Shown piece after piece: positions 1-56,972 of a stretch of 64,000 nucleotides of DNA (within the stretch, counting starts at the first letter, position 1; every line of letters begins with the position of its first letter). The notes below the pieces were generated by a model that saw nothing but the letters and a program-made list of their open reading frames with translations, was not told the origin of the DNA and ran no database searches. The stretch covers positions 1 to 64,000 of IMG/VR virus record IMGVR_UViG_3300028833_005986. One strand, given 5' to 3'. The stretch comes from a virus (lineage: Duplodnaviria; Caudoviricetes). A program made the translations under genes and the position numbers.

Positions 1-3000
1 TTATTTTACAGCTTCTAAAACTTCTTGTAAATCATTTTTATTCTTTAATATTTTTTGCTGTTCTTTAAATAATTCTAATTCTTTACGCAGAGGATCTAAA
101 TAATCAGTATCTGCAGTATATTTATTTTTTTCAATAGATGCAATATATAAAGTCTTTTCTTTTTCTAAATTTTGTGGCTGAGAATAAAATAAAATTCGAT
201 TATTAGAATAAAATGTTACTGAACCACGATTATTTTTAGTTCCTGAATAATATATATAATTACCAACTATAAAATCTTTTTTATATTTATTAAATGTTGC
301 ATTATTAAAAGTTTGAGTAATAATTTCATATGGTGTAATAATTTCTACATGATATAAATGAACAATTTCTTTTATTACACCTTGTTCATCTTTTCTTGCA
401 TAATCGAAGGGTGCGATTTCTGTAATTAATCCACCTATATTACAAACTGTAGAAGCAGGAACCATTTGTACATGAGTAATTGATTTAGCTCCTACCATGG
501 GATGATATTTAAAGGATACTTTATCATTATTAAGTATATCATTTGCATACATTTGAAAATTAGTTAATTTACTATTTAAAATTGAATATTCATTATTAAT
601 AAATGGCTTTAATAATGAAGTAAGTTTATTATTTTCTTGAACTTTTTGCAATCGTCCTTTTGCTTTTTTTCTAGTAGAAATTAACTTAGCTAAATCATTT
701 TCATTAAATGTTTTATCAGCATTTGATCCATATATACCGAATTCATTTAATTTTGAAAATGGTACAATAATAGTATTATCTTTTTCAAATACTAATTGTC
801 TATCTTCTTGTAAAAATTTAGGTAATTGAATTTTTTCTAATATGTAATTTTTTTCAGCTTTTTGATTTTTATAATCATAATAAAATTCAAACCATGTAAG
901 TAATTCTCCTCGACTTAAATATATTGGCATTCTACCAAATAATTTATTTTCTTCAGTTAATGTTTTATCTTCGAAAATAATAGGTAATCCTTCAAAACAA
1001 TCATTATTAATTAATGTTTCAATTATTTTTTTATTAACTGCGCCTTTTGCCGCACGTGCAAAAAAATCATTAATGGAATCATAAGGTTGATTTTCTAAAA
1101 TAATCTGAATTGCTGCATTACCAATACCTTTTATTTGACCTAATCCAGTACGAATATAATCATCAGTAATAATAGCCTCAGATTGAGATAAATTTATATG
1201 AGGACCTAATATATTTATTCCTTTATGTTCTGCTTCTTGTTTATATAAAGCAAATTTAGAATTATCAAAAGTAATCATCGCTGCATAAAATGCGATCGGA
1301 TAATTAGCTTTTAACCAAGCCATTTGCATAGTTATTATTGAATATGCGTAAGCCGTTTAAAATATGGACTATATTTTAATATATATATTAAAGATTATTA
1401 GTCTCTGATATAATTTATTATATAAGTTAATAAGTATTAATTTAATTTATCATATAAAATATTACCTTTACGCAATATTCCAATATTATTATAATATATT
1501 TCATTTTTTAAAATTTGCATATTAGTAATTATACTTGTACTTAATTGATAAAATGGCATAGAATACTTTTTTCCTTGAATATTATGTAAATTTAAAGATT
1601 GCATATTAAACCAATTCTCTAATATATTTTTACACCAAGCTAAAAATTCTTTTGATGTACTTACAATATAAAATAACTTTCCATTATGTAATATGCAACC
1701 ATCACCATCAATAATGCCTTGAAATATATAAGGTAAAAATTGATATTCTTCAGGATATAAAATAGGTGGATATAAATTATATGTTTTATGATATACAATA
1801 CCAAATCGTCTTAGCTGTGATACTAATAATTGATTACCTAAAGTAAAATAATATATATTTTTTTTATACTTTATCAATTTATTAGATGAATTACAATTAT
1901 TATATGATCTGATTTTATACTTTATATTAAAATTATTAGCAAATAATATTACAGCTTCAAAATCAGTCATTCGTAAATCAATCTGATTTCTACAATTTAT
2001 ACAACCGTCAGTTAACATAATACCAATAAAATATGCTTTCCAAGCACAATCTAATAACGAAAAATCATAAGCATTATATATATATGTATTTAAATGATTT
2101 ATTGTTAACAAATATTTATTTACTTCATATGGTAATAAAATTTTTATAGGTGATACAATAGTTTCTAATTTATTTGAATGTCTAATAATATTACTATTAG
2201 TAATATTTTCATAGGTATGAATAATATTATATATACTATTACGTGTTTTATATTGATATTTTATACATAAATTTTTAACTGACATACCTGCTTTATAATC
2301 ATTAATAATATTTATAATCTTTTTATTTTGTAAAAATTCTTTATTTTGCATATTAATCCCATTCATTATATTAACTTATATAATTTTATTATATACTGAT
2401 TAATTTAAAATTATAAATTATTCCAGTAATTTTTCTTTTTAAGTCACACTAAATGACTTGCATTACTATAAATTATTATTAATTTTTTAAATTAATACTT
2501 TTTCATAAAAAGTATAGATTATATCATTATGTATATATTTAACAATTAATCGTTGATATTAATATATACTTGTATATATTAATATACTAATTATTACTAT
2601 TAAGTAATTTTTTAGTAAAATATTAAATCAAAAAAGTTCTAACAATTAAAACCATAACCTGATGATGCAAGAATAGTTTCTAACATATATTCTGCAACAT
2701 CTTTACTAAATCCGTTATTTATACTTTTTTCAACAAATGTATTAATAAAATCTTCATATTGTTCTGGAAATTTCTTCTTTTTTTCAATATATCGGCGTAA
2801 TTGATCTGCTTCGCCGAAGCTAATATTTAACATTGTACTTAATATTTGCATATATTTATATTTATAATTAATATTATATTAATTATATTAATTTTCATTA
2901 ATAATTTGGAATATATCTTTATCATTAATATTAAATATTTATTCTCTAGAGTAAATATATAATAATATATATTTACTTTGATATTAATATATATAATATA

Positions 3001-4748
3001 TTTCATCAAATTAAATTAATTAACAAAGTATATTATCTTTGTTCTTGAAATAAAATTACTCCGTAAGTACGATTTAAATAACGATCAATACGTGGATCTA
3101 TTTTTACTCTAAATTTCTGATCATTTTTTGCTTTAATATAAGTATCAACTTGACCTGAACCGGGGCGAATTAATGCTGTTACAGCTGCAACTTCATGAAT
3201 ATTATTAGGCTGTATTTTTCTTAGTATTGGTTTTGAAATTTTAATATTATCCATCTGAAAAATCCCAATAACATCTAAATCACATAATAAATTATAAGCT
3301 TTAGAATCATCTAATGGAATATTTTCTAATTTTATTTCGCCATGCATTTTTTGTGCAGCATCTACAGCATAATATTTTTTAATTAATTGAAGAACTAAAT
3401 CCATTTGGGATAAAGCCGAAAGTTTTAATCAATTATATATAGACTATATTTTTTTTCAATTATATATTTACTAAATATTAGTCGTTAAATACATATTAAT
3501 TTATGAATTAATATGTATTACTGATCTATTAATTCCAGTAATTAATAATATTAACCGACGCATAAACTTTACGTCTATCTTAACTAATCCAAAATTTTCA
3601 AAATTTTCTTTTTCTGCTTGAGCTAGATATCCTGGTTCAGTATCTGCATTAATTACTTTTGCTTGAGTAACTGGTAATAAATCTGTTACTGGTATTGGAG
3701 ATACTCCAACACCAGATGGATGCATTGATATTTGTCTAACTGTACCTTCTAATAATTTAGCATATTTTATTACATCTGGATATTTTTTAATAAATTCCTG
3801 TGCACCTGGTAATTTTTCTAAATTATCTATATGATCTATTGGATTTCCGTCTAAATCTCTATCAGGAATATTTTTAGTAAAATTATTTACTTCATCATAT
3901 GGTATACCTAATACACGACCAACATCTTTTATACATTGTTTCATTTGCATTTTCATAAATGTACATACATTGGCTACATATTCTTTCCCATATTTATCAA
4001 TTAAATGCTGAAATACTTGAGGACCTTTTAACATACAATAATCTGTATCTATATCCATTAACATTTATATTTTCATATAAAATTAGACTATCTCTTTTAA
4101 CTTTTATATAAAGCTAATTAAAACGCTTCGAATAGTAACTCATCTTCTATTCTACTAAAATTAGTCGTTACACATTTAATAAAGATAAACTTCAATAATA
4201 ATTCTTAAATAAACATTGATATTTAATAGTTTTATTTAATTGAGTATATTCTTTTAAATTTAAAAAATCTAATATTTTATTATTAATTGTCATATATCCA
4301 AATTTATCTTTATTATTTTGCACGGTATCACCAGCTATTTATTTTTTTTATATATAATATATTAAAAAAAAATAAACCTTAGGCTTTCTTAGTTAGCTAT
4401 TTATTATTTAATTATTAAGAATTAATTTTATTTTGCTAATACCGTTAGCAACAAAATTTAATATTTGTTACACTGCTGAGTTATGGCATTCATTTTAAAT
4501 GCCCAATATCGTTTAGGCAAATGCTTTCGAGTAGGATTTAAAAAACGTTCAAAAATAAGATCATAATCAATAGGATCCATTTTTGTTATTCCTAATAGAT
4601 TATTAACTACAGATCCTCCGCCAGAATTATGTACTACTAAGCCATCAATATTATATGAATGAATATCATCTATTTCTAAATCGTATACTTTACCTTTATA
4701 ATGATATTCTTTTTTATTGGTAATTTTAATTAATTTAATAAATATCAA
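1..4748 (-). CDS. dnaE: DNA polymerase III alpha subunit, C-terminal half, with N-terminal split-intein (IntC) leader; 6 exons (4748-4515, 4055-3571, 3429-~3041, ~2856-2644, 2460-2453, 1353-1), ~893 aa
   Basis: Removing five introns joins the DnaE motifs in frame: FERFLNP..LP|DIDTD, GLVKIDV|LKL, YGVILFQEQ|YMQI, GYGFN|SSH|AYAY..AWLKANYP, plus HhH GLGQIKGIG. The exon sum is 2682 nt, divisible by 3. The PHP/N-terminal half is absent from the window. Confidence 0.9.
1354..2452 (-). mobile_element. Group I intron dnaE-I5 (1099 nt) carrying a LAGLIDADG endonuclease ORF
   Basis: P1 AAGUCAU/GUGACUU with terminal U-G; AAUUACUGGAA P4-like element; P7 CAGAGACUA/AUAUAGUCC; ends AAACG before GCT TAC GCA TAT. 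Confidence 0.9.
1437..2366 (-). CDS. Intron-encoded LAGLIDADG homing endonuclease / possible maturase
   Basis: Two motifs, YFIGIMLTDG and IFQGIIDGDG, with an N-terminal HTH-like segment; lies inside dnaE-I5. Confidence 0.88.
   Translation of the reverse strand: MNGINMQNKEFLQNKKIINIINDYKAGMSVKNLCIKYQYKTRNSIYNIIHTYENITNSNIIRHSNKLETIVSPIKILLPYEVNKYLLTINHLNTYIYNAYDFSLLDCAWKAYFIGIMLTDGCINCRNQIDLRMTDFEAVILFANNFNIKYKIRSYNNCNSSNKLIKYKKNIYYFTLGNQLLVSQLRRFGIVYHKTYNLYPPILYPEEYQFLPYIFQGIIDGDGCILHNGKLFYIVSTSKEFLAWCKNILENWFNMQSLNLHNIQGKKYSMPFYQLSTSIITNMQILKNEIYYNNIGILRKGNILYDKLN
2461..2643 (-). mobile_element. Miniature group I intron dnaE-I4 (183 nt)
   Basis: Short P1 AAUU/GAUU; UCAACGAUUA...GAUAUAAUCU (P7 GAUUA/UAAUC); P9 hairpin AUACUUUUU-AUG-AAAAAGUAU; terminal G at 2461; restores GFN-SSH. 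Confidence 0.8.
2857..3040 (-). mobile_element. Miniature group I-like intron dnaE-I3 (184 nt, boundaries +/-2, non-canonical ends)
   Basis: 5' hairpin AACAAAG/CUUUGUU; CUAGAGAAUA...AAGAUAUAUUCC (P7 GAAUA/UAUUC). Removal restores FQEQ-YMQI, but the intron then ends in A. Confidence 0.7.
3430..3570 (-). mobile_element. Ultra-small group I intron dnaE-I2 (141 nt)
   Basis: P1 GACGU/GCGUC; P4 UUACUG/CAGUAA; 12-bp P6 hairpin; UUUAACGACUA...AUAUAGUCU; terminal G at 3430; GT|A restores KIDV-LKLSAL. Confidence 0.88.
4056..4514 (-). mobile_element. Group I intron dnaE-I1 (459 nt, ORF-less)
   Basis: P1 UGCCU/GGGCA; UGCUAACGGU; GUAACGACUA/GAGAUAGUCU; terminal G; restores HLP-DIDTD at the catalytic aspartates. 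Confidence 0.9.
4626..4748 (-). mobile_element. C-terminal fragment (IntC, 41 aa) of a naturally split intein
   Basis: KLIKIT...VYDLEIDDIHSYNIDGLVVHN followed by Ser+1 (SGGGS, the DnaE GRG-S site); no intein N-part or DnaE N-half upstream. Confidence 0.85.
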
Positions 4749-4754
4749 TCCCTT

Positions 4755-5786
4755 CTATAATAATTTATTTCGTAAATCAATACTATTTAAAATATCTAAT
4801 TCATCAGGTTCAAATGAAATATGACTTTTTACATATGCTATTTTTGATGCTCGAGTTTTCGCTTTTAATTTTTGAATTAATAATAACCTTTCTGATTTAT
4901 GTAACCATTTATTAAATGTTAAACAATTATAATAAAATTTTTTAAATGATGAAGTATCATTAAAAATATCATTATAAAATTTATTACAAATTAATTCTAA
5001 TTCAGATGAACTTAATTTACGTAATTGATTTTCCCAAAATTCAAAATCCATTGTATGTTCATATACATATTTAAATAAAATATCTCTAATTATATCTTTT
5101 ATTTCATTATTATAAAATTGTGCAAATAAATCATAATATAAATCAAAATGATCTTTGTATACAAATTGAAATATTTGTATACGAAATTCTAAGGGAATTT
5201 TCGTATTTAATATAGAACGTTGTGCTCGATAATTAGATATTAATAAATCTTGTAATATTATTCTTTTATGAATATTAGTTAACTTATCATAAAATTTTAT
5301 TAATACATCATCATAATAATAATTATCATTAATCGCATATAATAATATCTTATTTAATTCATCTGTTGTTAATTCAAGTAGTTCTATTAATCGTTCGCAG
5401 TTTAACAATTGCGTTCCATGAGTTGCACAATTATTAATAATACTTGTACGTAGCATTTTTTTATCTTCATTATTTATATATAATTTCTGTTCAAATAAAT
5501 CACAAGCTAACTCAAAATTTAATTTTGCAATATTCATATATGCATTATATAATTTTTGTTCATTTTTATCAAGTTGTAATGGCAATTTATGTAAATTTAT
5601 TAAATCAGCTCTAAGTATATATTTTAAAGTAGAACTTTGACATTGTGCTAATACTATAGTTGCTTTTTTGTTATTATCATAATAACCATATTGATATTCA
5701 TACGTAATTGTTTCATTACTATCTTTATATAATTTACATATTTGTGAAGAAAATATATCATATAATTTATCTAAATCATACCTCAA
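4755..5786 (-). CDS. Hypothetical protein (343 aa)
   Basis: Long ORF with GAGG RBS, abutting sppA; no recognisable motif. Confidence 0.75.
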   Translation of the reverse strand: MRYDLDKLYDIFSSQICKLYKDSNETITYEYQYGYYDNNKKATIVLAQCQSSTLKYILRADLINLHKLPLQLDKNEQKLYNAYMNIAKLNFELACDLFEQKLYINNEDKKMLRTSIINNCATHGTQLLNCERLIELLELTTDELNKILLYAINDNYYYDDVLIKFYDKLTNIHKRIILQDLLISNYRAQRSILNTKIPLEFRIQIFQFVYKDHFDLYYDLFAQFYNNEIKDIIRDILFKYVYEHTMDFEFWENQLRKLSSSELELICNKFYNDIFNDTSSFKKFYYNCLTFNKWLHKSERLLLIQKLKAKTRASKIAYVKSHISFEPDELDILNSIDLRNKLL

Positions 5787-7853: not shown

Positions 7854-8218
7854 TTTTAGTGTTTAAACCGAGAAAATAAACATTCGCCTCTTCTTATTAT
7901 AAAATTATTAAATGATAATATTTTCCGTGATATTTTCACTTTTTAGAAAATATTTTATTTTAAGCAACTAAAGATTCGACTCTCGGTTATGTTATATATA
8001 TTTTAAGCATTACCAAAATTTATATATAACAGCCTACAATCTTATTTTCGTCACAAAAAATATCATTTAATTATATATATAATAAAAAAAGCTATAAAAA
8101 AAATTAATGATTAGATATTTAAATATCTAATCATTAATAATTCTTATTGATATAAAAGAATATTTTTCTCATATTAATTATATATTTATTTTATTTAATT
8201 TGATAATTAATTATATAT

Positions 8219-9004
8219 TTATTTTGATAATAAAGAACGCCATTTATTTCCTAAATTATATAAATTATTCCAACGCTCTTCCTGCGGATCATTAAAATTT
8301 TTCCAAGGTTTCCCACAGGTTAATTTACTTTCACTACATTTACCTGTACAAAAACAATTCGGGCCACTTAATTTAAATATTTCAGGACACTCTTTAACTA
8401 AAGCTTCTCTAATTTTATATGTAATATATCTAATTTCAGTAGTATTTCGGAAGCATATACGTAAAGCTATAAGATTTAACAGGGTGCGAATATTCGCAGT
8501 AATTAATAAGTTGTTTCTCATAGCTTGCGGTGTAACAGCTCTAGTAACATCATGAGTTAATTTATATTGATTTTGCATTTCTTGATATACATCATGCGCT
8601 TTATTACATATATTAAAGAAGTCTTTTAACGGCTCTATAGAATTTAATTCTTCACATTTTTCAAATATTTCTATTGGTACTACAAAATCTGGTTTTTTCC
8701 AGTTAGAATAATGTTGACTACCTGAAGAATATGAAATTCCTATACGCGATCTAGTAACTTGTGCTAAAAAAGCGCGTGAAGCACCAGATATTAATATTGA
8801 ATATGAACAATGTTCTAATGGAGAATGTTTGCATTTTATTAAATTAGTAATTATATTTAAATCTTTATCATCATGATTATTTAAATTAGAATTAATAAAA
8901 AAATCATCATTGGTTTTAAAATTTAATCTAGTAGAATTAGCAACAAATTTGATAGGATCTACATTTGGTTTTTGTATAATTTCAATTTTTATCTGATCCA
9001 TCAA
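8219..9004 (-). CDS. thyX: Flavin-dependent thymidylate synthase (divergent motif)
   Basis: HSPLEH, SRAFLAQVTRSR, SQHY, N-x-R..LR, CF..GKCSE motifs. Confidence 0.82.
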   Translation of the reverse strand: MMDQIKIEIIQKPNVDPIKFVANSTRLNFKTNDDFFINSNLNNHDDKDLNIITNLIKCKHSPLEHCSYSILISGASRAFLAQVTRSRIGISYSSGSQHYSNWKKPDFVVPIEIFEKCEELNSIEPLKDFFNICNKAHDVYQEMQNQYKLTHDVTRAVTPQAMRNNLLITANIRTLLNLIALRICFRNTTEIRYITYKIREALVKECPEIFKLSGPNCFCTGKCSESKLTCGKPWKNFNDPQEERWNNLYNLGNKWRSLLSK

Positions 9005-13918: not shown

Positions 13919-15100
13919 TTATTTATTCAATTTATTAATATATTTTTTTGTGCATGAAATTATATTATCTACAATTTGATAAATATTATTTGATGCTATT
14001 ACTGCACCAGCAGCATGAGGAAAACCATTTCCGCCAAAATAAGACATGATTTCATTAACAAATATATTTCCCCGGCTACGGGCTTTAATTTTTGTATTAT
14101 TATTACTTTCGATAAAAAGAAATGCTACATCGGCTTCTTGTATATTTTTTAATTCTTCCATTAAATATTCTACTACATCATATGTAACATTATATTTTTT
14201 TAAATCTTCTTTCATTAATACTAAATATATAATATTATATTGATTATCATGAATAATATGTGTAAATGCATTATTAATTAGTTTTAATGCTGCTAACGGT
14301 TTTATTTTACATATTTGATTAATTATATTAAGATCTGCATTATTTTTTAATAATAATGATGCATAATATAATGCTAAAGCAGTAGTATTAGAATTTGTAA
14401 ATCCAGATCTAATAATTTATTAAAAAATCATTTTTAATATATTTTATATACCTCTTATAATAAGAGTAAAGACTAAATCATTAATAATATATTAACAATT
14501 TCAATAAATATTTACTATATATTAGCCGTTAATTTAGTATATATTATAATTAATATATGTTAAATATTGATAATATTCTTAAAGATTAAATACCAATAAT
14601 AAAATTAATTATGATATTAATTTAGTATCTCCAAAAATTCCTAAATATAAAGCTGTTGCGATTTGAGGAGTAATATTAATATTCATTTCTGATAAGAAAT
14701 CAAAAATTATCATTGTATTAGCAGGCCAAGAAATATTATAATAATAATTTCCAATTGATTCGTTATTATTATGATGATCTATAACAATTAATAATTTAGA
14801 TATGTTATCTAAATTAATTGTTCTATTCCGTGTAGAACAATCTACTAAAATGCATAAATCGTAATATTTTTTTGCTGTTTTTATTATATTAACATTTTTT
14901 AAAATTAAATTAAATATAGATGAATGTGAAGGCGCAATAATATCTACTTGCTTATTTAATGTTTGTAATGCTAAAGCTAATGCTACAGCAGATCCAATTG
15001 CATCGGCATCTGGAGAAAAATGGAAAGTTATTGCAATATTTTTAATTTGTTTATTATTAAATATATTTATAATTTTTTGCTTAATCTGAATTAAATCCAC
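13919..15100 (-). CDS. nrnA: DHH/DHHA1 phosphoesterase (NrnA-like), 2 exons (15100-14624, 14407-13919), ~321 aa
   Basis: H.SPDADAIGS, VD, IDHH, GIFGDT|SGFTNSNTT, GGNGFPHAAG; frame is open from 14407 to the stop. Confidence 0.85.
14408..14623 (-). mobile_element. Miniature group I intron in nrnA (216 nt, +/-1)
   Basis: P1 AGAUACU/GGUAUUU; UUAACGGCUA...GAUUUAGUCU; removal restores DT-SGF. Confidence 0.82.
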
Positions 15101-17583: not shown

Positions 17584-19988
17584 TTATTTTAAAATTAAAT
17601 TGTTTGCTATTTTATCAGTAATAATTATAGAATTAATATCATTTCTATCTGGAATATCATATTCAATTTTTGATAAAGCAGAACTAATAATACTTTTTAA
17701 TCCTCTAGCATTTGTTTTTTTATTAATAGCAAGTTTAGCAATTAGTTGTAATACTTCAGTAGTAAATTGTAAATTAACCTTATCCATTTGAAATAATTCT
17801 TGATATTGCTTTATAATAGCATTATTAGGTTCTGTTAATATTTTTATTAAATCATTTTCAGTTAAATGATTATAAATTACTATTTGCGGAATACGCCCTA
17901 CTAATTCTGGAATTAATCCATAATTAATTAAATCATTAGTAGTAACTTGTTTTAATAATTCATCTACTGTATATTTTTTATCTTCATATCCAAAACCAAT
18001 ATGTTTTTTATTAATACGATTTTTAATAACTGTATCTAATCCTACAAATGCACCAGACAATACAAATAAAATATTACTTGTATCAATTTCTACAGTATTA
18101 TCTAATAATGGTGTATGTTTATTACCCAATTGCACTTGTATTTTATCGCCTTCTAATAATTTTAAAAATTCTTGTTGTAAAGCAACACCCGCGACATCTC
18201 TGCCACTAGTAGTTTGCATATTTCTAGCTGTTTTATCAAATTCATCAATTAATATAATTGCTTTTTCAGCCTGAGATATATCATTATTACATTCTTTAAT
18301 TGCATGTGCAAGAATATCAGTTATATCTCGTCCTACTATGCCTGATACTGTTACAGAAGTTATTGATTCTAATATTAACGGTCTATCTAATAATTTTGCG
18401 AGTGCTTTAAATGTCGCCGTATTATGTGTAACAATAAAATCTTTACATATATATGTATGAGTAGGAGAATCAACAGTTATACATTTCATTTCTGCTTTAG
18501 TATTTAATTTTTGAACATTTTTAATTTTTAATATATCATATGTATGTTTTTTATTAGGACATTTTCTTTGATTAAATCTTTCTTTATGTTTTTTAGAAGT
18601 AAATAATACATCACTATCAGAACATATATATATAATATATGCTTGATTATCATGTCTATTATCTACTCGTAATTTAACTCTATAACCTAACGAATAAATT
18701 AAAAATTTAAAATCTTCTGCTAATTGTTTCGATACAGTACAAAAACTAATATGTCCTTTATTATTAATATGGCCATCAGTATCAATTAATCCTCGTACTA
18801 ATTCCAATCTATCTTCTATTGAAGAATATTTATATTCATTAGGAATAAATTTATCTTTAGCTAAGCAATATCCAAATGTATTTTTTATATAATTTCTTAA
18901 TTTAGATGAATCTGTATTTCGATATGTATGTCTTAACGGATATTTAGGATTAGTAACAAATTCGCCTAAATCATTATCTACAGTTAAGCATTTTATTTTT
19001 TCAATTAAATCATTTTCCGGGTTCGTAAAAACAATATCTTTACCAAAATGTCCATCACCTAATAATAGACCTAATAAATAAGGCGGTATTTCTAAATCTT
19101 TTTTATCAAATTGAATTGGTTTATTAATAGGAATAGCAATATTATATGTATAAGATTTTTTAGATTGAACTTGTATCCGCTGAATTATATTTTTAATTGA
19201 ATCAACACACCATTTACTTAAATTAAATCCATTATGATATCGTGTTTTAAACATCCATAAATGATCTTCACAACATTTTATTGATGTATTATCAATAAAT
19301 GTAATAAGCCATTCTTGCTTTAATTCATTTTGTGGATATTCTGCAATTACAGTAGTTAATTGTCCCATACTATCATAAACTACTGATCCAACATGAATAT
19401 CTTTTAACTGAACAAATCCAGAAGGAGTTAAAATCGGCGTATCTATAGGTAAACATTTTCCAACGCCGCTTTCCCCAATACAAAACATATTAGTACGATC
19501 TAAAGCATCTTTTTCACCATCTAAATTACTATTATACTGTATTTGTTTTTGATGTTCATATAATAATGTTGCTACTGTTTTTTTAGCATCTTCTTGACTA
19601 ATAATATATTTATCTAACCAAGCTTTTATTTCACTGGGCTTTTTTAATTCGTTAGTATTGTAAATTTCTTCATCTTTTTCTTGACTAAGAATTGTATCTA
19701 TATATTTTACTTTATTTTTACATAAAGTATAGACTATATCTTTTATTTCAATTATTATAATTTACTGTATTATAGTCGTTGAATAATATTTATTACTAAT
19801 GAAATTTTATTAAAACTATCTTAGTAATTATTTTCACATACAAATGCAATTAATTTTTACATCATAGATATACAATCAGAACAAACGCAAACATCGGCTG
19901 TTAAATCCATACCTTGCGAGACAATCATTTTTTTACTATCATCATGAGATTTACCACAAAAACTACATACATATTTTTTCTTTTTCAT
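17584..19988 (-). CDS. clpX: ClpX ATPase; 2 exons (19988-19859, 19697-17584) plus intein; ~402 aa mature
   Basis: Unannotated exon 1 encodes the CSFCGK..CVCSDC zinc finger after an AAGGAG RBS. Exon 2 has PSEIKAWLDKYIISQ, Walker A, DEFDK, GRDV, IGF loop and PELVGR. Confidence 0.92.
18421..19455 (-). mobile_element. Intein (345 aa) with LAGLIDADG domain in the ClpX Walker A motif
   Basis: GVGK|CLPIDT...FIVTHN|T; LLGLLLGDG and VRGLIDTDG. Confidence 0.92.
19698..19858 (-). mobile_element. Miniature group I intron in clpX (161 nt)
   Basis: P1 GAUGU/GCAUU; UUACUAA/UUAGUAA; UUCAACGACUA...AAGAUAUAGUCU; terminal G; T|AT restores CISMM-Y-TIL. Confidence 0.9.
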
Positions 19989-20170: not shown

Positions 20171-23100
20171 TTAAAAATTAATAATTGCTGGTTCATAATT
20201 TAATTTTATCGGTTTTGAAATTTTCGTTCCTGATTCTAATTGCGCAGTATCAATTAATCTAATTCTCCCACGATTATCAAGATTAACATATTTATCTGCT
20301 ACAATTATCATTTTATGAACATATCCTGGATCTTTATTCGCAAATTGTACATAAGATGATCCTTTATTAATTCGAGATTTTATTCCTACAATAGTATTAT
20401 CTAGCATTTTATATCCAAATCCGCCATTAATCTGTTTAGTATATATAATTATTTTATAAGCCGCGTTATATTTAGTAATACTTACACTATTAACAATATC
20501 TTCGTTTTTTAATGAAATAGCCGGAATGCCTTTCTTATTTGCAGTTAATGATTCTTTAAATGATTGTTCATAAAACCGATTAATAATTCCCTTTTGCGAA
20601 ATTAATGTAATAATATTATCTTTATCACTATTAATTCGCTGCGCATGAATAATTTTATCTGAATTTTCAAAATTACTAAAAATTGGTGCTAATTTTTTAT
20701 TCCGAGCTTTAAAACCAGATTCATTAATTTTTAACATTAAACCATTTTGAGTAAAACATGTAATATATTGATTATTATTGTTTAAGATAAATATATATAT
20801 AATATTTTCTTTACTATTCCATGCTAATAAATCAGTAAATGTTAATTTTATATAATTATTATTTTCTAAAATAACTAAAAATAAATCATTAGTTTTACAT
20901 TGAATTATTTGCTTATATATTTCATTTTTTTCTTTTAATACACCTGAACGAAAATTACTATTATATATTTCTTGTGAAATAAGATATATATTATTTTTAT
21001 GAGTTAATATTAATAATGCATCTTGTACTTCAACTTTTTCTATTACTTCATTATTAATTAATTGCGTACGACGATTATCACCGAATCTTGTTTTTAAATC
21101 TTCTAATTGATTAATAATTTTTTGATCTACTAATGCTGGAGTATTTAATAATTGATTGGTATCAGCTATTTCTATAGTTAATTTTTTAATATTATTAAGA
21201 ATATCATTTTTATTTAATTTAGTTAATCGTCGTAATTTAAATTCTAAAATAGCTTCTGCTTGATTATCATCTAAATTAAAATAAGATTTTAATTGTTCTT
21301 TCGCATCTTTATCAGTTTCTGCTTGCTCAATTAATTTAATCGCCGTGGATAAAGAATTAACAATTATATTTATTCCATTTTGAATATGTAATTTATCATT
21401 TAATCTATTCAAAATAATTTTATTTTCTTTATTAATGCATTCTCTACGATGCTGTAAATAACAATTAAAATATTCTTTTAAAGAAAATACTTTCGGAGTA
21501 TTATCTAATATTGCTCTTATTATAAATGAACAATTTTTTATTAATTCAGTCTGATTAAATAATTCATTTATAGTCAGATCTATAATAGCATTTTTTGATA
21601 ATTCAATAATTATATTAGTATGTATAGTTGATAAATCTTTTATATTACTAACGCCAGGAATTTTTTTATCAATTAAACATAATTGTTGTAATTTTTCTAC
21701 TAATTTTTCTCTATTAACTTCTGGAGGCAATTCATTAATAATAATATTATTATTTTTTAACTCATATTTAGCCTTAAATGTTAATTTTCCTTGTCCAGTC
21801 TCATATAATTTTTTTATTTCGTTGTTATTAATTAATAATGAACCTGATGGAAAATCCGGACAAGGCATAATTTTCATTAATTCATCTAATGTAATATTAT
21901 TATTTTTTATATAAGCAATAATAGCATTACATAATTCATTTAAATTATGCGAGGGAATATTTGTAGAATATCCTACAGCAATGCCTTGGGTGCCATTAGC
22001 CAATAAATTAGGAAATATTCCAGGCAAAGTAATAGGTTCTTGTGTAATATCAGAATAATTAGATTTAAAATCAACAGCTTTATTATTAATTCCATCCATA
22101 TTAAATTCAGCTAATTTATTTAATTTTGCTTCGGTATTATGATTAATAAATCCATTAGCTGTAAATGAATGACATTCGCTATTTACTTTTATAGAATATA
22201 CGTGTTTTTCTTTAATTGATAATTTTTTATTAATAATTTTAGAATATACAAAATCTCTATTAGTAATTAAATCTTCATTATATAAATTAATTATTTCACG
22301 AAGTATATTTATTTTTTCGTCAGATATAAAATTAATATTTTTATAAAACCAATATAAATCTTGATATTGATTAATTTTTAATTTAAAGGTTTTCTTCTTC
22401 TTATTTGGTATTTCGTATACAGTTGATACAATTCCAAATTGTAATAATAATATTTGTATTTGTTGAAGAAAATATTTATATTTAGACGAATATAAAATAA
22501 AGCACTTTTTACCTTGTTTTGCATCATTAAAAATACTAACTTGTGCGTGATTTTCGAATAAATATAATAAGAATATTTTTTGAATATATTTTGACGATTT
22601 TAAAATAACAGACGGTATGGATATGTTATTAATAACATAATCATAATTTTCTCGTAAAAATTGATATAATATTTTACTATTAATAGTAATTTCATATAAA
22701 AATTGACGTTTTAACTTTCTAATTTTTACATTTAATTTGCTAGTAATATTTAAATCTATTATTAATCTTTGTAAATAATTAAATAAAAAATTATGTAAAT
22801 ATTGATTATAAGTTCGTATTTTACAATGCCAATATCCGCCATTAGGTAAATGTCTGATAGAAGAATTAGCTAAAAAAGTACCTATAAATTGAGCTTGTTC
22901 TTCATTAGCTATATCCCAATCTGCACTAATTTGATCTTGTTTACAATTGATTACTGCAATATCTCCTTCTTTAACTTCTTCTAATAATTTCCATTTATAT
23001 AAATTATTATCTAATACTAATATAGGATGATTATATGTACCTGATAATTCAAAACCATGTTCAGTATTTATAGTAAACACTGAATGCATATCTGAATCAA

Positions 23101-25844: not shown

Positions 25845-28537
25845 TTAGATATTATTAATTAAATATGCGTTATCTTCAATAAATTTTTTACGTAATACTG
25901 TATCAGTTCCCATACAAATTTTTAATGTTTCTTCAGCTTTAAGTGCATCATTAATTGTTATACGTTTTAAAATGCGTTTTGCAGGGTCTAAAATCGTTTC
26001 TTTTATTTCGTCAACCGACATTTCACCAATCATATATTATATACTGACTATCTCTTCACTATTAATAATAATAGGTTAACTTTTTCAAAAAGCGTACTAA
26101 TAACTTTCTTACTTATAATTAGTCGATACAGATTTGATTCCAATTTATACCATACCAAATATTACTAAAATATTTTTAAATTGTCCAATATTATATTACT
26201 TAGTAATATTATTAGTAATTTTATAAATTCCACATTTCATTTTTAAATACTTCGCCTTAGGAATAATATAAAATTATGTATAAATTATAATCACTTTCCA
26301 CGGGATTAATATTATCATCTTCCCCGTTAGCATATATTATATTTTTTATATTTAATATATACCCTAATAGTAAATTAGAAAAATTAATACAGGCTGGTTT
26401 CTGTCAACCTTTGAAGCGCTGTAGTTCAAAATTTAATGTAAAATTTTTATTTTTCCATTGCTGTAAAGCATTATCATCTCTTAAATATATACTTTGATTT
26501 TTATTATAAATTGCTCTATATAATGGCGGAATCGCAGCATATAAATGTCCTCGATTTATTATATCACGCATATATTTATGTAATAGAACAATTAATAATG
26601 CTTTTATATGCAGGCCATCCGAATAATTATTATATTTATTATAATAAATATATTCATATTATAATATGAATTTAGATTATATCTTTTTTATATAAAAATT
26701 AATATATAATCGTTGAATTTATTTTATATTATAATATATAAAAATTACTAATTTAATTTATATAGAAATTATTCTTAGTAATTAAATAATTTTTTAATGT
26801 CAATAATCAACATCTGCGTCAGTTAAAATTATAATTTTATCATATCGTAATTTAGCAACATCAAAATTTTTTCCAAATCCTGTACCAAATGACTGAATAA
26901 TACGTTGAATAGAAGGCGAATTAACAATTTGTTCTAATGAAGCTTTTTCAACGTTTAAAACTTTACCTCTTAATGGTAATACAGCTTGAAATTCTGTACT
27001 TATTCTTCCTGCAACAGTTGATCCAGCTGCTGAATTCAATTTTATATTATATACTAATTTTTAGTATATTCTTAATTTTTGTATTAAGTTAAGATTATGT
27101 CTTTATTCTATATTTTTTTTATAATCGTTAAATTATTTTTCATAATTAAATTTTATTACATAAAAATTATTATGAAAATAAATTATAAGTATATATAATT
27201 TTATATATTTCTTATAATTAAAAAATTATAGGCAATTATTTACCTTCTACAATGAAAATTTCTGAATATTGATTAGTACCTGCATTAATACAATCAGATA
27301 ATTGTGCTGGTAATAATGATTTTTTAGTTACTTTATTACTAATTCTTTTTTCAATTCGAGCTTTTCTTGCAGCTTCATCCGCGTCTTTTAATTGAATTAC
27401 ATAATTTATAATATTTAAAATTAATTGTTTAAATTCGTTATTTTTTAATTGCTTTTTAAAATATTCATTTAATACATTTTCTATTACAGGTATTATTTCT
27501 ACAGAATTTAATTTAATTTTTGTCTGGCCTTCAAATGAAGGATTAGTCATTTTTATATTAATAATTAAATACATATTATCTAAATAATATTTTTGATCTA
27601 TCGGTGTTTTAAATAATTTATTTTTTATTCCAAAATTATTTAAAATTTCTACTAAACTTTTAATAGTAGTATTAACATGAGTTCCACCTGTATATGTATT
27701 TATATTATTACAAAATGATTTAATAAATGATAATGATTCCAATTCTTTATTTATTAAAAATATAATTTCTACATTATTACCATTAATATATATTGGTTCT
27801 TCAAATAATAATTTTTTATCTTTAACTAATTGCTTTATATAAGAATTTAATCCATCAGCATAACAAAATTGTTCTTTACTATTATTTAATTCATTAATAA
27901 AATTAATTGTTAATCCTGAATTTAAAGCTGCTAATTCTTGTAATCTATTTTTTATTTCATTACTAGGAAATATAGTTTGTTTAAATATAGACTTATCCGG
28001 TTTATAATAAATTTCTGTTCCAGTTATTTTATTATTATTTTCGTCTAATTCAGTTTGACCAATAACTTCTACATCTGTAATGGGAATACCTTTTTCAAAC
28101 TTTTGCTGATATATATTACCATCTCGATGTACTGTTACAATAAAAAAATCACTTAAAAAATTAACAGCAGATGATCCTACACCAAATTGACCAGAACTAA
28201 ATTTATATTGATCATTATTATATTTCCCACCTGCCATAAGTCGATTAAATGCTAGAGTCAAACTATTTATATCATTACCATCAGCGTCTTTAGTCATAGA
28301 ACATGGTACTCCTCGACCATAATCTCTAACTCGTACTGATCCATTTTTATATATATGTATATTTATAATATTACCATATCCAGCTAAAAATTCATCAATG
28401 GAATTATCAACTATTTCATATAATAATTGATTAATACCATGTTCATTAGTAGACGCAATATACATTGACGGTCGTAATCGAACATGCTCTCTATCCGTTA
28501 AAGCTTTTATAGATTCTGCATTATATTCATTGTTCAT
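25845..28537 (-). CDS. gyrB: Type IIA topoisomerase subunit B (GyrB/ParE-like); 4 exons (28537-27242, 27036-26809, 26619-26407, 26030-25845), 640 aa
   Basis: Splicing restores VEG|NSAAGS, PLRGK, TDADV|DGLHI and QRFKG|IGEM. Exon 3 is missing from the ORF track. Exon sum 1923 nt. Confidence 0.93.
26031..26406 (-). mobile_element. Group I intron gyrB-I3 (376 nt)
   Basis: P1 AGGUUG/CAGCCU; UGCUAACGGGGAA..CCCGUGGAAAG; GUAUCGACUA/GAGAUAGUC; terminal G. Confidence 0.9.
26620..26808 (-). mobile_element. Miniature group I intron gyrB-I2 (189 nt)
   Basis: P1 AUGUU/GACAU; UUCAACGAUUA...AAGAUAUAAUCU; ends AUUCG. Confidence 0.88.
27037..27241 (-). mobile_element. Miniature group I intron gyrB-I1 (205 nt)
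   Basis: P1 AGGU/GCCU; UUUAACGAUUA...AAGACAUAAUCU; ends AUUG. Confidence 0.88.
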
Positions 28538-30300: not shown

Positions 30301-30614
30301 TATAAATTATGTAATAATTGATATGCTGAAACGCAATCTTTTATGTAATCATTTATTTCTTGACTATTAGATATATATTCTTCAGCTCCAATATGAACAG
30401 AAATATCACTTTCACTATAAAAACAAGGATATGCAAAAATATATATAAATAAATGACTTTTATTAATATATAACTGATGTATACGGTATAACTCATTTCG
30501 TATTTCTTCACGCAATTCTTTATTAATTATACAATTATAATAATGTGATAATATTGAATCAATATCATTAATATATTTATTAATTAATTCCTTATCTTTT
30601 TCCGTTATATACAT
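30300..30614 (-). CDS. Hypothetical protein between the IscB loci
   Basis: ORF with GAAAGG RBS. Confidence 0.65.
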   Translation of the reverse strand: MYITEKDKELINKYINDIDSILSHYYNCIINKELREEIRNELYRIHQLYINKSHLFIYIFAYPCFYSESDISVHIGAEEYISNSQEINDYIKDCVSAYQLLHNL

Positions 30615-30659
30615 GCTTTTTTCCTTTCATAATGCATATAATAATTTATATATTAATAC

Positions 30660-31961: not shown

Positions 31962-31962
31962 C

Positions 31963-32323
31963 TTTAATACTCCTTTGTGAAAAGGATTTATAATCATAAT
32001 ACTTATTTATATTAATTTAATACTTATTTATATTAATTTAATACTTATATGAAATATTCATATTAAATTGCTATAAATAGTAAATAAACTCCCATGCTAA
32101 AGTTATCTCATGTTTTAATTTTACCTACATAGTAGGTAAAATATGACTATAACACTGTTACTTTATATATTAAGAGATACTCAAGTAGGAATATATAAAG
32201 TAACTGTTTAATTATAATCCGTAGAGTTTTAAACTGGAAGAACACTTAAAAGTACCTATAATATAATGAGATAACGTAGTCTACTCTGTAGACTTAAGCT
32301 GATAGGTTAATTGAGTATTAACC
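31963..32323 (-). ncRNA. omega-RNA of IscB copy 2
   Basis: Near-identical to 29960-30300, with one swapped hairpin and a 21-nt tandem duplication near the 3' end. Confidence 0.82.
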
Positions 32324-32350
32324 TATAATTCCTCATACATATTTTTCTCC

Positions 32351-34182: not shown

Positions 34183-37100
34183 TTATTGATCTTCTTCAAA
34201 CATTTTTTCGCTTACTAAATCATTATACAGTTTATTTTCAAGTTTTTTTCTAGCGTCTCCGTCCTCAACGGTATTTTGCTTTTCAATAACCCATTTAGGC
34301 GGATATTTATATATAGAAGTTTTTATTCCATTAGCATATTTAGTTTTAGCAGCTTGTCCCATAGATGCTTGCATAAAATTTATATATGTTTCCATTATAC
34401 CTTCTATAGTAATTCCTGTATCTCCGTTTCTTCGTTCTTTCCCGCGTTCATTAGCAGCCATATTATACCACTTAGATATAAATGATTTAGGAGTTCTAAT
34501 ATAAGCTAAACCATGACACAATTTAGCATCTGAACTTTTTAAATATCGTTTTACTTCTTCTTTTATGTCTGATAAATCTTGTAAAGCAGCTAATCCAATT
34601 GAAGATAATAAAGTATTAGCATCACTTACAGCATCTGCGATATACTGTAATTCTTCATCAATATTTATATTTTTAAATACTGTAAGTTTTCCCTTAAAGC
34701 CTTCTGCTTCTGCTTCTACTTGTTCCTTTTCCATTTCTGTATGAAGTTTATTAAAACGATTACTAATATTATATTTACCAGTTCCAAAAAATGCTACAGC
34801 AAATGGAGAAATCCTACCATATTGATCACAACAGCCTTCAATATAAGGCTCGACTCGAGCATGAATTGCTTTTATTTTTTGTAAACCTTCGTCAGTATTA
34901 ATATCAATATTATATAAAGTATTTATAAAATAAAATAATACTGATTGTCGTTTTTTATTATCTAATTCTAATATCGTATTACGTAATCTTTTTTGTATTC
35001 CTAATAAAATTTGTTCTTGTATTTTACCTAATTGATTTATTTTAATTAACCAATTTTTATTTAATTGGTGTAAATCTTTATCATAATAATCGTCTTCATA
35101 TTCTTTTTGAGTATCATATAATTGATTAAATATATTATTATATATCTGTTTTGCGGTACATTTTCCCCATACCGAATCTTTATATATAATATCAATAGAA
35201 TTCGCAATATTAAAACGCTTAAATGTTTTCCATAAATTTATATTTTCTCCGTATTTTATTAATAAGCATGTTTGAGTTTTTGTGCTATTATAAATTTTTA
35301 TATAGAATTGAGTATTTTCTTCTTCTCCAAAATTTTGCATTATTGAATTATTAGCTTCATTTTCATTGTTATCTGGATTTCTTGCTGCTATATTTTGATT
35401 TGATATCCATGTTTGAATTAAGCTATAAATATTATGCGGGTGATTACCGGATTTATTATTTTTTAATAATTTTCTGAATAAATATTAAAATTATATTTTT
35501 AATATTAAAATAAAATATTTTTAATATCTTTTAAAATAGATTTTAATATATTATACTTATATTTATGTATAAGCATAGATTATATCTTTATATAAAAATT
35601 ATATAAATAAAATTCAACAAAAATATTTACTATATATAATCGTTATATTATTTATTATAAATTTATAATGAATAATTATGAATTTTAATATAATTATTAT
35701 ATTTTCATAAATTATATTAATTATGCTACTTTATATATAAATAGCTTCATTAATATCATTAATTCTTTCGGTTGAGCATAATTCATTTATTTGATTTATG
35801 AAACTACCAATACTCGTACGATAGCTAGTTAATAAATTTGATATACGCTGTTTAGGATGCAGTTCTTCCCATGTTGCTATATTATCTTTAATAATTTGTG
35901 TACTAGATTTTAAACTGCATAAATCATCAATCATTTTTCGAAGATATTTTATAACTGTATGCCATCTTTCTGGAGAAAACTTTTTTTTAGCTTGTGCAGA
36001 ATTAGAATCGCGCTTTTTCATATATACGTCATTTAATTTTTGTAAAGTTTCTTCTAACGATGAAAATCCGCCATGTGATAATTCTAAAAAATCATCTAAT
36101 TTTTGATTATTAATTACATTTATAATTTCTCCAAAAGACTGATTCGTTACAGGTGTAATAAAATTATTTTTAGAATTTAAGGCCTTATATTTATTATTAA
36201 AGCATGTGTTACGGTATCTTTGTAATTTACTAGTATTATTTTTAATAGCATCAGTTAATTCTTTTAAAGTAGTAATATCATTTAATATAGGATTATTACT
36301 AAATGTTGAAGCTAAATTTAATGCTAATTGTCTAGCTCGTAAAAAGACATTATTATCGAATTCTTCTAATTTAGCATTTTCTTCAATAGTTAAATTCAAA
36401 TTTAATAAATTACGGCGTATATTAACTATACTACGTAATTGAGAAATAATAATATCAGCTTGTTTTGAAGTTAACTCCTTATCTTTTACGCGTTGATATA
36501 ATTTTTCAATTATATCATTACCAAAATATCTATGACATTCTTCTAAATTAAATTGCTCAATACCTTGTGGATCTAATAATATTTTACGATTATTAACCTT
36601 TTTAATAACATCTGGATCTGTTAATGCTGATTCGTCATATTTATCATAAATATTTGAATTTTTTAAAATTGTATCAAAAATAGCTCTTTTTAAATTATCA
36701 AATAATTGTTGATATTTATTTATATTAATAGATGCAAAGGAATTTAAACCTTCAACTATAGCTTTACGTAATTCGGTATACTGTTCAGATGCCAATGAAT
36801 TAACTTGTACTTGTTGATATTTTTTAAAAAAAATTTCAATTCGTCTTATTAAGGCAAAAAAACCATATACTTTGTTAAGCGTAGCTTCGCTATCTTGTGA
36901 ATCTTTTACGCCTTCTTTATAAATTTTATATATCTGATTAACAATACGTTCTTTATTAACATTAGTATATTCATTATGCGCACGATTTAACCAAGAAAAA
37001 GATGTAGCATAAATTGAATCTTTAATAATTGGTAGTAAATCAGCATAATATTTAGCTTGTTTTAAAAATTGCCTTATAAATCGAGCGAATCGCAATTGAA

Positions 37101-37488
37101 ATATTTCAGGCTTAAATTGCGCTATAGTATCATACCACACTGAAATTACGAACCCACTAACTGCAGAAATATATACATTTCTAAATGCTTTATATTTATC
37201 GTTATTTTTAATATCATTTATAAATTGAAGAACTTTAGAAAATATATTTTTATTATATTTGATTATATTAGCAACATTTAAATTTATATCTGAATTTTCT
37301 TTCGTTGCTTTTATGTAGCTATCAAATAATAATTTTTCTGTTCGCTGCCAATCAACTGGAAATGTATTATTATCAATACCTATATCTTTACTATCTGCTT
37401 TTAATTGTTCAACAATACTTTTTATTTTTTTTCTAATTTCTAAATCAGTATCTTTAATTTTTGAATCAGTTGCCATATTTTTATTCAC
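34183..37488 (-). CDS. Large hypothetical protein, 2 exons (37488-35741, 35473-34183), ~1012 aa
   Basis: The 585-aa and 385-aa ORFs join in frame (GCT AT|A AAA) after intron removal; the downstream frame is open ~45 codons before its ATG. Confidence 0.78.
35474..35740 (-). mobile_element. Small group I intron (267 nt) in the hypothetical gene
   Basis: P1 GCUAU/GUAGC; UAACGAUUA...AAAGAUAUAAUCU; ends UUCAG. Confidence 0.8.
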
Positions 37489-54616: not shown

Positions 54617-56972
54617 TTAATGCCTCAACGGCTTTAAATTATAATCTAATAAATTCATAGGAAACATTTTTATATTAAACGCTGGTTCTTGCTTATATAA
54701 TCTATTACGTACTTGAGCTTGCCGTAATAACATTGGAGTAGAATCTCTAAAATCATACACAAATGCTCTATTTTTACCTTCGCATTTACGAAGTACACGG
54801 CCAATTCTTTGTAGAGCACGTGTAGATGATTTTCCTCCTCCTGCAAGAATCAGACAATCAGCTGATGGAATATCCAAACCTTCATCTGCAATAGTAGTAC
54901 AAATTAGAATTTTGCATAATTTTTCTCTGAAAGCTTGAATAGTAGCATTTCGTTTTAAAGAAGCATCACTACCTGATAAAAATTCTATTTCACTAACTTT
55001 AGCTGGTAATTTTTTATTACTACCAGTTTTTGATGCTTCAATCATAAATGCTTCATTACTAATATATTGTTGTAATAATCTTAAAATCATTTCACCATGT
55101 TCTATACGCTGAACTAAGATTAATATAGTTGCATTCTTTGCTTTACGCATTTGATAAGCAATTTTTACTATATCCATATTACGTTCACGATTACAAACAA
55201 TAGCTTCACGATATAGATCATTATAATTTTTTTGTGGAAATACTCGTTGATGCTTTACCCAAAAAATATCACAAGGCGTTATATAGCCTTGATTTATTAA
55301 TTCACTAGCTGTAACTTTATTATTAGGCAGCGGCCGGGCACATATAGCATCAATTAATAAATCAGAATTATCTGACCTCCACGGAGTGGCAGAAACTCCA
55401 ATACGATAATAAGCATTTACACACCATTTACTTACATCATTTAAAGTATTACATGGTAAATGATGACATTCATCAAATAATAATAATTTAGTATCTTTTA
55501 CCATTTCTTCTGTAGCTGATTGTGCAGAAAAAACAGTAATATCTTGTACATCTCTTGTTCCACCACCAACTAGACCAATCGGTTCGCCTAAAAATTTTTC
55601 AAATTCACTTTTTAATTGAGTACATAAACTAATTTGATTTGCAAAAATTGAAACTGGCTTTACATTAAATTTTGCAACTAATCCTGCCATCATTAATGTA
55701 TTATGTGTAACAATAAAATCTTTACATATAAATGTATGCTTAGGAGAATCAACAGTAATACATTTCATTTCCTTTTTTATATTTAATTTTTGAATATTAA
55801 CAATTCTTAAAGTATTAATATTTAATATTTGAAATATATTATTACCTTGTTTAGAAACACGATATCCTAATGAATATAATAAAAACTTAACATAATTCAT
55901 TAAATTATCATTATAAATATAAACATGATTTTCATCTATATAATGTGCTTGCATTAATCCTTTTAAAAAAGCTGTTCGTTCATCAACAGATGAATAAAGA
56001 TAATTTTTAATATTATATTGTTTTAATATATCGCGATTATTTTCTCTATTAACTAAAAATCCAAAATCATATGGAGATAATATAAAATATCTTCGATAAT
56101 ATTGAATTGGCTTATTAACTGGAATTTGCATATCTATAACTAAATCTTTACATGCAATAATTTGTTCTTCTGATCCATTAATAACTTTCCATAAATGATC
56201 TTGACAACATTCTATTTTAGTTGCATCAGCAAAAGTAATTTCATATATTTCTTTTTCGCCTTGATAAAATTCTTTTAATACTCTTGTTTGGTTGCCATCT
56301 TCATCATATACTATACTACCAGGATGAATATCTTCTAACTTAACCCACCCGTTGGGTGTAAGAATATTCGTATCTAATGGCATTGCTTTACCCAAATTTA
56401 TTATTATAAATAAAATTTATACTATTTATTAAAATATTTTAAAATAAATAGGTTAGTATATATCTTCTTTATTAAAGTTATAATTAATATACGTTGATAT
56501 ATTAATAAAAATTTTTATTAATATATTCTGATTATTATATTTTTCAGAAATAATTATAATTAAGTAGCAATAAATTACTACTAGTTGCAGCTTGAATAAT
56601 ATCTCTCGGACGACAATTATCTATAATTTTTTGCTGATAATCTCTAACTTTTAATTCTTGAGTTCTTTCTTTATCTAAATATTTAACTAATGAATAATCA
56701 GCATTCGGTTGCCAAGCAACTCTTTTATCAATAATTTTATATTCTTCTTTATTTTCTTCTAAAATTTCAATAATATAATCTAATAATCCGGTATAACTCT
56801 TTTTTGTAATACGATTAAATAAATGTCTAACTTGTGGAATTGAATTGGGATTATATTCTTGTATTTCAAAAGATAATTTATCCCAAATTTTAAATTCTAT
56901 ATTATTACTTGCATATTTTACTTCTACATATACATTATCTATGTGCAATTCAATCAAATTCATCACTTCCAT
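54617..56972 (-). CDS. SF2 DEAD/H helicase (UvsW-like); 2 exons (56972-56577, 56392-54617) plus intein; ~494 aa mature
   Basis: RDYQ, AATSS|GK-[intein]-T, DECH, SATP, EGLDIP, QRIGRVLR. Confidence 0.9.
55700..56386 (-). mobile_element. Class 3-type intein (229 aa, Ala1) in the helicase Walker A motif
   Basis: GK|AMPLDT...DHLW...MKCITV...VTHN|T, giving the W/C/T signature; endonuclease eroded. Confidence 0.88.
56393..56576 (-). mobile_element. Miniature group I intron in the helicase (184 nt)
   Basis: P1 AGUAGU/GCUACU; UCAACGUAUA...AAGAUAUAUACU (P7 GUAUA/UAUAC); ends UUUG. Confidence 0.87.

Follow-up and report, generated by a model that had tools for sequence, protein, structure and literature searches.

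Swarms of small group I introns are already known from jumbo phages. The genomes of Jug jumbo gut phages contain a mean of 18.5 such introns each, averaging approximately 206 nt in length, and their splicing has been confirmed by metatranscriptome reads (PMC12880540, Sci Adv 2026). In the Jug phages many short introns fragment essential genes and lie beside inteins and homing endonucleases (PMC12880540), and the same situation is found in the stretch of DNA studied here, a window of 64,000 nucleotides (positions 1 to 64,000) that forms the start of IMGVR_UViG_3300028833_005986, a single IMG/VR virus record of 166,990 bp (the 167-kb contig, labelled G000). The window contains twelve very small group I introns and the 167-kb contig about 40, an intron density approximately five times higher than that of the Jug phages. 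The present work concerns P7, the normally conserved guanosine-binding helix of these introns, whose inner base pairs vary among the copies while pairing is kept. We consider it highly probable that the complementary motifs seen in the insertions are the two P7 strands of a family of miniaturised group I introns, and that their variation reflects compensated drift within this lineage.

Each core is marked by two boxes around a spacer, (U/C)AAC or CAGA followed by GNNUA, and (A/G)AUA followed by UANNC. The forms UUCAAC-GACUA and AAGAUA-UAGUC are the J6/7-P7 and J8/7-P7' boxes of the consensus of the Rfam model RF00028, which in one external phage locus has UUCAaAGACUAAA and gAAGAUAUAGUCu at the P7 box positions, so that the motifs occupy homologous positions, as the original prediction had assumed. 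The G of GNNUA and the C of UANNC we take to be the counterparts of Tetrahymena G264 and C311; the base before G264 is then presumably the bulged A263, and the base before the bulge would pair with the base after the C (C262-G312). All twelve P7 pairs named by the original prediction were located on the minus strand, which carries every gene of the window. The range that it gave, beginning at 2461, takes in eleven of the cores but leaves out that of the fifth dnaE intron (1403/1367, i.e. the first base of the 5' strand and the last base of the 3' strand, which is how P7 coordinates are defined here). In an alignment of the twelve introns (A1) the 5-bp P7 is paired in 60/60 cells, with a single G.U in the nrnA intron, and the guanosine-binding G-C pair is present in 12/12, a figure that is free of selection bias only for these twelve gene interruptions. 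The second pair is A-U in ten introns, G.U in one and U-A in one, and the third is C-G in six, U-A in four and A-U in two; a bulged base (C or A) precedes a sixth pair, which is A-U in nine introns, G-C in two and unpaired in one. The covariation score was 0.394 as compared to 0.118 ± 0.038 for shuffled alignments (0/500), and pairing fell to 26–50% when the 3' partner was slid. Since the two strands of P7 change in step, the helix is maintained by selection, as had been proposed from the first inspection of the sequence.

The predicted fold topology is that of a group I intron. In minimum free energy folds with P7 held open, dnaE-I2 and the helicase intron show a P3 around the hairpins P4 and P6 together with J6/7 and the P7 5' strand; a P3 of gyrB-I2 (AAAAAUUA/UAAUUUUU) at the corresponding position came from visual inspection and not from the fold. 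Within dnaE-I2, AAUU-ACUGG-AAU...GAUCAGUAAU corresponds to the P4 consensus AAUUGCGGGAAA...AAUCCGCAGC. Complementarity of P3 strands within introns as compared to that across introns was weakly positive (7.74 versus 7.36, p = 0.03), and dnaE-I1 and gyrB-I3 have extra hairpins after P7. The phage introns share with the RF00028/Tetrahymena core the UUCA(A/C)-GACUA and AAGAUA-UAGUC boxes, the position of the G-C pair, a single bulged base with another pair beyond it, a predicted P3 around P4-P6 and the P7 5' strand, and, for ten of the twelve introns, U.G in P1 together with a terminal G. They differ from it in that P5 is no more than a loop, P2 is missing and only vestiges of P8/P9 persist in many copies, in sizes down to 141 nt, in the lack of an RF00028 score, and in that over half of the copies have U-A, A-U or C-G as inner P7 pairs. 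Phage introns of the IA2 type, such as those of T4 td, nrdB and sunY and of Twort orf142 (Twort has several per gene), are likewise phage-borne and have the same J6/7 and J8/7 boxes; they measure at least 240 nt without ORFs (open reading frames) and are found by standard models, and the sunY core reportedly tolerated drastic trimming in experiments. The IA2 subgroup is characterised by a P7.1/P7.2 insertion between P3' and P8.

Searches with tblastn, using uninterrupted DnaE (Salmonella and Streptomyces phage Evy), E. coli GyrB and E. coli ClpX as references, showed that dnaE, gyrB and clpX are interrupted at conserved motifs, and removal of the introns rebuilds motifs of DnaE, GyrB, ClpX, NrnA and a helicase. 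Bacillus phage G DnaE was dropped as a reference because it is itself interrupted. Intron boundaries were set by homology, since an automatic splice-site solver scoring U at -1, terminal G, open frame and P1 gave many false solutions within exons. All coordinates below are on the minus strand, and a hyphen within an amino acid sequence marks the junction.

Five introns interrupt dnaE. The first, dnaE-I1 (4056..4514, 459 nt, full size, terminal G at 4056), has P7 GACUA/UAGUC at 4166-4162/4090-4086 and P1 UGCCU/GGGCA with U.G, and the resulting RKHLP-DIDTD matches DnaE. dnaE-I2 (3430..3570, 141 nt, terminal G at 3430) has the same P7 at 3483-3479/3446-3442 and P1 GACGU/GCGUC with U.G; its join, IDV-LKLSALS, aligns without gaps to DnaE of Salmonella and phage Evy. 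dnaE-I3 (2852..3038, about 187–190 nt, ends uncertain) contains GAAUA/UAUUC at 2944-2940/2913-2909, with a sixth pair of the form G[A]G...C-C, and lies between ...FQEQ, ending at 3039, and MQIL..., beginning at 2851, both of which align to DnaE. In dnaE-I4 (2461..2643, 183 nt, terminal G at 2461) P7 is GAUUA/UAAUC (2551-2547/2521-2517); the upstream exon ends in ...GYGFN plus a U at 2644, and P1 is weak (4 bp). dnaE-I5 (1354..2452, terminal G at 1354) holds a LAGLIDADG ORF at 2366..1437, has P7 GACUA/UAGUC at 1403-1399/1371-1367 with the sixth pair again G[A]G...C-C, and P1 AAGUCAU/GUGACUU with U.G; the exon restarts at 1353 with AYAYSI, matching DnaE. Between dnaE-I4 and dnaE-I5 remains a micro-exon of 8 nt, CAAGUCAU (2453-2460), which encodes the S-H of the DnaE motif GFNxSH and has 7/8 of its bases within P1 of the next intron.

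Three introns interrupt gyrB. gyrB-I1 (27037..27241, 205 nt; P7 GAUUA/UAAUC at 27126-27122/27097-27093; P1 AGGU/GCCU) gives IVEG-NSAAGS where GyrB has LVEGDSAGGS, gyrB-I2 (26620..26808, 189 nt, terminal G; P7 GAUUA/UAAUC at 26711-26707/26679-26675; P1 AUGUU/GACAU with U.G) gives TDADV-DGLHI as compared to TDADVDGSHI in GyrB, and the full-size gyrB-I3 (26031..26406, 376 nt; P7 GACUA/UAGUC at 26124-26120/26050-26046; P1 AGGU/GCCU) gives QRFKG-IGEMS as compared to QRYKGLGEMN in E. coli GyrB. The clpX intron (19698..19858, 161 nt, or alternatively 149 nt, ending at 19710) separates the zinc-finger exon from the AAA+ exon and has P7 GACUA/UAGUC (19777-19773/19736-19732), P1 GAUGU/GCAUU and a terminal G. 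In nrnA the intron (14409..14624, about 216 nt) lies between the DHH and DHHA1 halves, and its P7, GGCUA/UAGUC (14527-14523/14475-14471), has the G.U at pair 2. The intron of 267 nt in a gene of unknown function (35474..35740; P7 GAUUA/UAAUC at 35641-35637/35582-35578; P1 GCUAU/GUAGC), whose 3' end was set from ORF continuity alone, links ORF 37488..35731 to ORF 35340..34183. Finally, the helicase intron (56393..56576, 184 nt, terminal G) has P7 GUAUA/UAUAC at 56492-56488/56460-56456 and P1 AGUAGU/GCUACU with U.G, and the join AATSS-GK restores a Walker A run. A P1 with U.G and a terminal G are thus compatible with frame and homology in 10/12 introns.

When the whole contig was considered (41 cores, alignment A2), pair 3 was C-G in 18, U-A in 16 and A-U in seven; pair 2 was A-U in 32, U-A in five, C-G in two, G.U in one and U.G in one; and the sixth pair was A-U in 32, G-C in five, U-A in one and other in three. 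The 29 copies outside the window had been chosen by a regular expression requiring inner complementarity, and because of this preselection we also ran a flank-only expression and a sequence-only model. The former, which holds AAC-G..UA and GAUA-UA..C constant and lets the inner bases vary, returned 20/20 complementary pairs on the 167-kb contig. The latter (R1), a covariance model built on sequence only, without base pairs, and trained on the P7 mixture of the 167-kb genome, gave 55 distinct rows from this contig and its relative G001 (159 kb), with 96.1% pairing, the G-C pair in 49/49 and a covariation score of 0.273 as compared to 0.075 ± 0.013 when shuffled (0/500). The only departures among confident matches were one A.C and one terminal A.A, both in G001. 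Short complementary words are common in A+T-rich spacer, and loose regular expressions yield many non-intron matches (those for the R and S boxes were abandoned, being swamped by noise), so the pentamers could in principle be chance matches or arms of unrelated inverted repeats. This explanation, which we regard as having practically no probability, is already refuted by the controls: strict flanks give complementary partners in every case while slid partners pair in only 25–50% across the alignments, and the boxes match the RF00028 core consensus and have a fixed location, with a P1 containing U.G on one side and a terminal G on the other.

Elsewhere P7 is near-invariant in comparable phage introns, as the original prediction had presupposed. 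A pattern leaving GAYUA and UARUC free matched 116 IMG/VR loci, and the distinct matches comprised 113 C/G, two C/A and one U/A; some of the matched contigs, of 360–400 kb, may be Jug-type phages. In other phage contigs the flank-only expression found GACUA/UAGUC in 144/151 matches in its strict form and in 336/375 in its wider form, and model R1, run on 100/116 external loci, found it in 40/40 distinct copies with both strands aligned. The lineage of the 167-kb contig has six P7 versions, whereas the other IMG/VR phage contigs sampled with model R1 have GACUA/UAGUC without exception. Only 17/40 cores of the 167-kb contig have this P7, and G001 shows the same spread (11 GACUA, six GUAUA, four GAUUA, one GCAUA and one GGCUA, i.e. 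GACUA in 11/23). As P7 hardly varies elsewhere, the variation is real diversification under a pairing constraint, and since G001 shares it while other phages keep GACUA/UAGUC, it is a trait of the lineage of these two contigs. What is new here is that P7 diversification is confined to one lineage.

The same data bear on the possibility that the phage acquired several intron lineages, each with its own P7 type already fixed, and that no compensatory evolution took place in it. The introns do belong to several architectural families, GAUUA/UAAUC is common to all seven IStron-type copies, and an intron with this P7 occurs in an unrelated giant-virus contig (L164). Every family except the IStron one contains several P7 types, though, and in the other phage contigs sampled variant P7 helices hardly occur: when IMG/VR was scanned for the GAUUA and GUAUA types, the yield was nearly exclusively chance matches, with no enrichment of G before the S box, the exceptions being the L164 intron and the related contig G001. 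Close paralogues also stand one step apart. Three copies about 75–85% alike (judged by eye), in three different genes, have A-U, G.U (nrnA) and A.C at the same pair, and G.U and A.C are the only two intermediates that a single step towards G-C can give. When the inner P7 columns were masked, the resulting tree required at least 11 changes among the six P7 types, a figure that is indicative only, as the tree is poorly resolved (2/36 inner branches well supported). Separate acquisition therefore appears unlikely to us. The nrnA-type intron occurs in three unrelated genes on two contigs (14409-14624, minus strand; G000 around 117600-117790, minus strand; L279 around 8800-9000, minus strand), a distribution implying that it has moved recently with no endonuclease ORF of its own, and P4 of these copies shows a compensated change from C-G to U-A.

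Compensated drift would follow from the way in which the guanosine site is built. The site is formed by a base-triple sandwich at the P7 G-C pair (PMC2588497). As is well established, the pair 264:311 binds first the guanosine cofactor and later the terminal G of the intron as a base triple and can for this reason not change, whereas pairs 265:310, 266:309 and 262:312 need only to stay paired. In this lineage the free pairs would have drifted, mostly towards A-U/U-A, a change on one strand being compensated on the other, with G.U and A.C intermediates persisting in close paralogues. Switching G264-C311 to A-U reportedly gives use of 2-aminopurine (Michel et al. 1989), and this specificity switch explains why the G-C pair alone never varies in the phage copies; a natural A-U replacement is not seen among them. 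Variation (U-A, C-G) does occur at the adjacent pair, one that solved structures show engaged in a base triple. The behaviour of P7 is textbook for group I introns and involves no new mechanism, so that the understanding of how these introns work is unchanged.

It is improbable, in our judgement, that the diversification is adaptive rather than the outcome of drift. A single transcript contains many introns spaced by only a few hundred bases, and cross-pairing of the 5' P7 strand of one intron with the 3' strand of the next would misfold both introns or skip the exon between them, which unlike neighbours would avoid. P7 differs in 18/21 pairs of neighbours within 600 nt (permutation p = 0.07), and the test gave p = 0.04 at 800 nt and p = 0.25 at 450 nt; avoidance between neighbours is thus not significant once the choice of cut-off is allowed for. 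On a related and likewise improbable reading, the changed pair beside the guanosine site, together with the non-canonical splice sites described below, would point to a relaxed or protein-assisted active site.

It should be underlined that some observations weigh against compensated drift among working introns. Splicing in vivo is presumed from the sequence. For dnaE-I3 and the nrnA intron the canonical rule of U(-1) and terminal G cannot produce the conserved join: in the former the conserved QEQ and MQIL codons abut the insertion, no such combination joins them and A would be required at -1, and in the latter the join GDT-SGF is reached only with C-G at the 5' site and G as the last base, or with U.G and A as the last base. 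In the regions of these two introns, 2849-3047 and 14408-14625, the 5' site would accordingly have A-U or C-G, or else the intron would end in a base other than G. Outside the window the catalogue was largely found by patterns or a profile demanding G and C at the ends of P7, and the G-C invariance there is therefore partly by construction. Recent duplication accounts for many of the copies (the IStron family), and cell counts therefore make independent events look more numerous than they are. Finally, all 17 cores from external loci with less than 26% G+C keep GACUA; A+T mutation pressure is a plausible driver of the shift but would for this reason not be sufficient alone.

The irregular ends of dnaE-I3, whose downstream piece begins with AUG, and of the nrnA intron would also suit decaying, non-splicing relics or spacers of split genes in which complementarity has not yet eroded, and Rfam scores none of the introns. 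Erosion would leave C.A and other mismatches, whereas the 39 to 41 copies of the 167-kb genome show two-sided changes at three pairs and zero mismatch. Moreover, the exons are intact, several junctions fall inside codons and motifs that are useless unless joined (Walker A, TDADVDG, the 8-nt micro-exon), the downstream pieces have no preceding ribosome-binding site, and similar small introns of Jug phages are spliced in metatranscriptomes (PMC12880540). We therefore hold decay to be very unlikely. The earlier view that the insertions are unlikely to be relics stands for the ten introns with P1 U.G, terminal G and motif-restoring joins, and is left less secure for dnaE-I3 and nrnA, which lack a canonical join.

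The suggestion that the altered P7 lets the introns escape sequence-based searches did not hold. RF00028 gave no match in the window at the gathering threshold (50 bits) or at E ≤ 10, and with lax filters on the 3.3-kb dnaE stretch it missed all five dnaE introns. The missed set includes the 459-nt dnaE-I1 and other copies with the canonical P7, and the P7 changes therefore do not explain the miss. In one external phage locus RF00028 gave 53–91 bits on related introns, and in 5/6 scanned external loci, all rich in pattern matches, it gave no match. Its structure line treats both P7 strands as unpaired consensus sequence, and compensated P7 changes consequently cost score. The main cause of the miss is probably the reduced P3-P6 region, in which the P4-P6 consensus is lost, combined with the extreme A+T content. 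Extreme trimming of P3'/P8 is not confined to the 167-kb genome, as the cores of two external IMG/VR loci (L034:2547-2590 and L044:380-422) share it, with only about 20 nt between the P7 strands.

The covariation is good in-silico evidence that tiny insertions invisible to Rfam are working ribozymes, and the fragments of dnaE, gyrB, clpX, nrnA and the helicase gene are accordingly to be read as parts of intact genes. The roughly sixty paralogous copies in the two contigs form a natural mutational series in which 265:310, 266:309 and 262:312 vary and 264:311 is fixed. That RF00028 penalises compensated P7 changes is an argument for pseudoknot-aware or subtype models in huge phages.

The genome is that of a very A+T-rich huge phage (22.8% G+C), and CheckV estimates the completeness of the record at 34%. 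No tRNA genes were found. Genetic code 4 was rejected, as the fragmented ORFs stay broken under it. Pfam assigned to the window a replication and nucleotide-metabolism module, comprising DnaE pieces, GyrA with an intein, GyrB, ClpX with a LAGLIDADG intein, RecJ, an NrnA-like DHH protein in two pieces, LigA, PyrG, DnaB, DnaG, ThyX, dCMP deaminase and a sigma factor. A megablast search with 20 kb gave no close relative in the phage collection and a search of IMG/VR with the N-terminal half of GyrB gave no relatives; the sole relative found is G001 (158,834 bp, 22.5% G+C).

Inteins with LAGLIDADG or splicing domains were seen in ClpX (17584-19488, at Walker A GK-C), GyrA (20171-23632) and the helicase (54617-56395), all on the minus strand. 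As inteins occur in intron-bearing genes, several genes would require both RNA and protein splicing. The homology of dnaE begins at about residue 346, behind a 36-residue C-terminal intein piece (4458-5786, minus strand), and directly upstream, in the same frame and separated by one stop codon, lies an ORF of 343 amino acids with neither a Pfam match nor similarity to DnaE. No PHP/N-terminal half of DnaE was found across the 167-kb contig.

Two further segments of the minus strand were examined in the window. The unusually G+C-rich intergenic stretch 57360-57546, between a glycosyltransferase gene and a small ORF, had no Rfam match, and the fold stability of 57365-57530 was no better than that of shuffles (z = -1.4). 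The 365-nt gap upstream of an ORF with a 3D domain contains a relatively G+C-rich segment (7880-8050) with hairpin-like repeats, for which neither an Rfam match nor group I boxes were found.

Mobile elements are also present. Repeats of about 1.7–1.9 kb with a group I core and a transposase ORF (phrog_506) occur in G000 at 70035-71930, 77900-79825, 107914-109834, 110179-111901 and 164068-165786, and look like IStrons. Their cores all have GAUUA/UAAUC and are mostly of the IStron type, two copies of about 1.7 kb holding a core of another family, and the copies are 84–90% identical to G001. Just upstream of gyrB, two tandem IscB-type genes (RRXRR + HNH, 445 and 450 amino acids) occupy 28606-32326 on the minus strand, each preceded by a HEARO/omega-RNA-like match (57.6 and 55.6 bits, below the gathering score of 83 bits), and a homologous copy of this locus is found in G001. 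Outside the window the contig encodes an RNA polymerase beta-like ORF, transposase ORFs and two ORFs of about 4,400 amino acids; the latter, of 4,426 and 4,394 amino acids, are adjacent and uninterrupted on the plus strand (G000 131873-145150 and 145214-158395).

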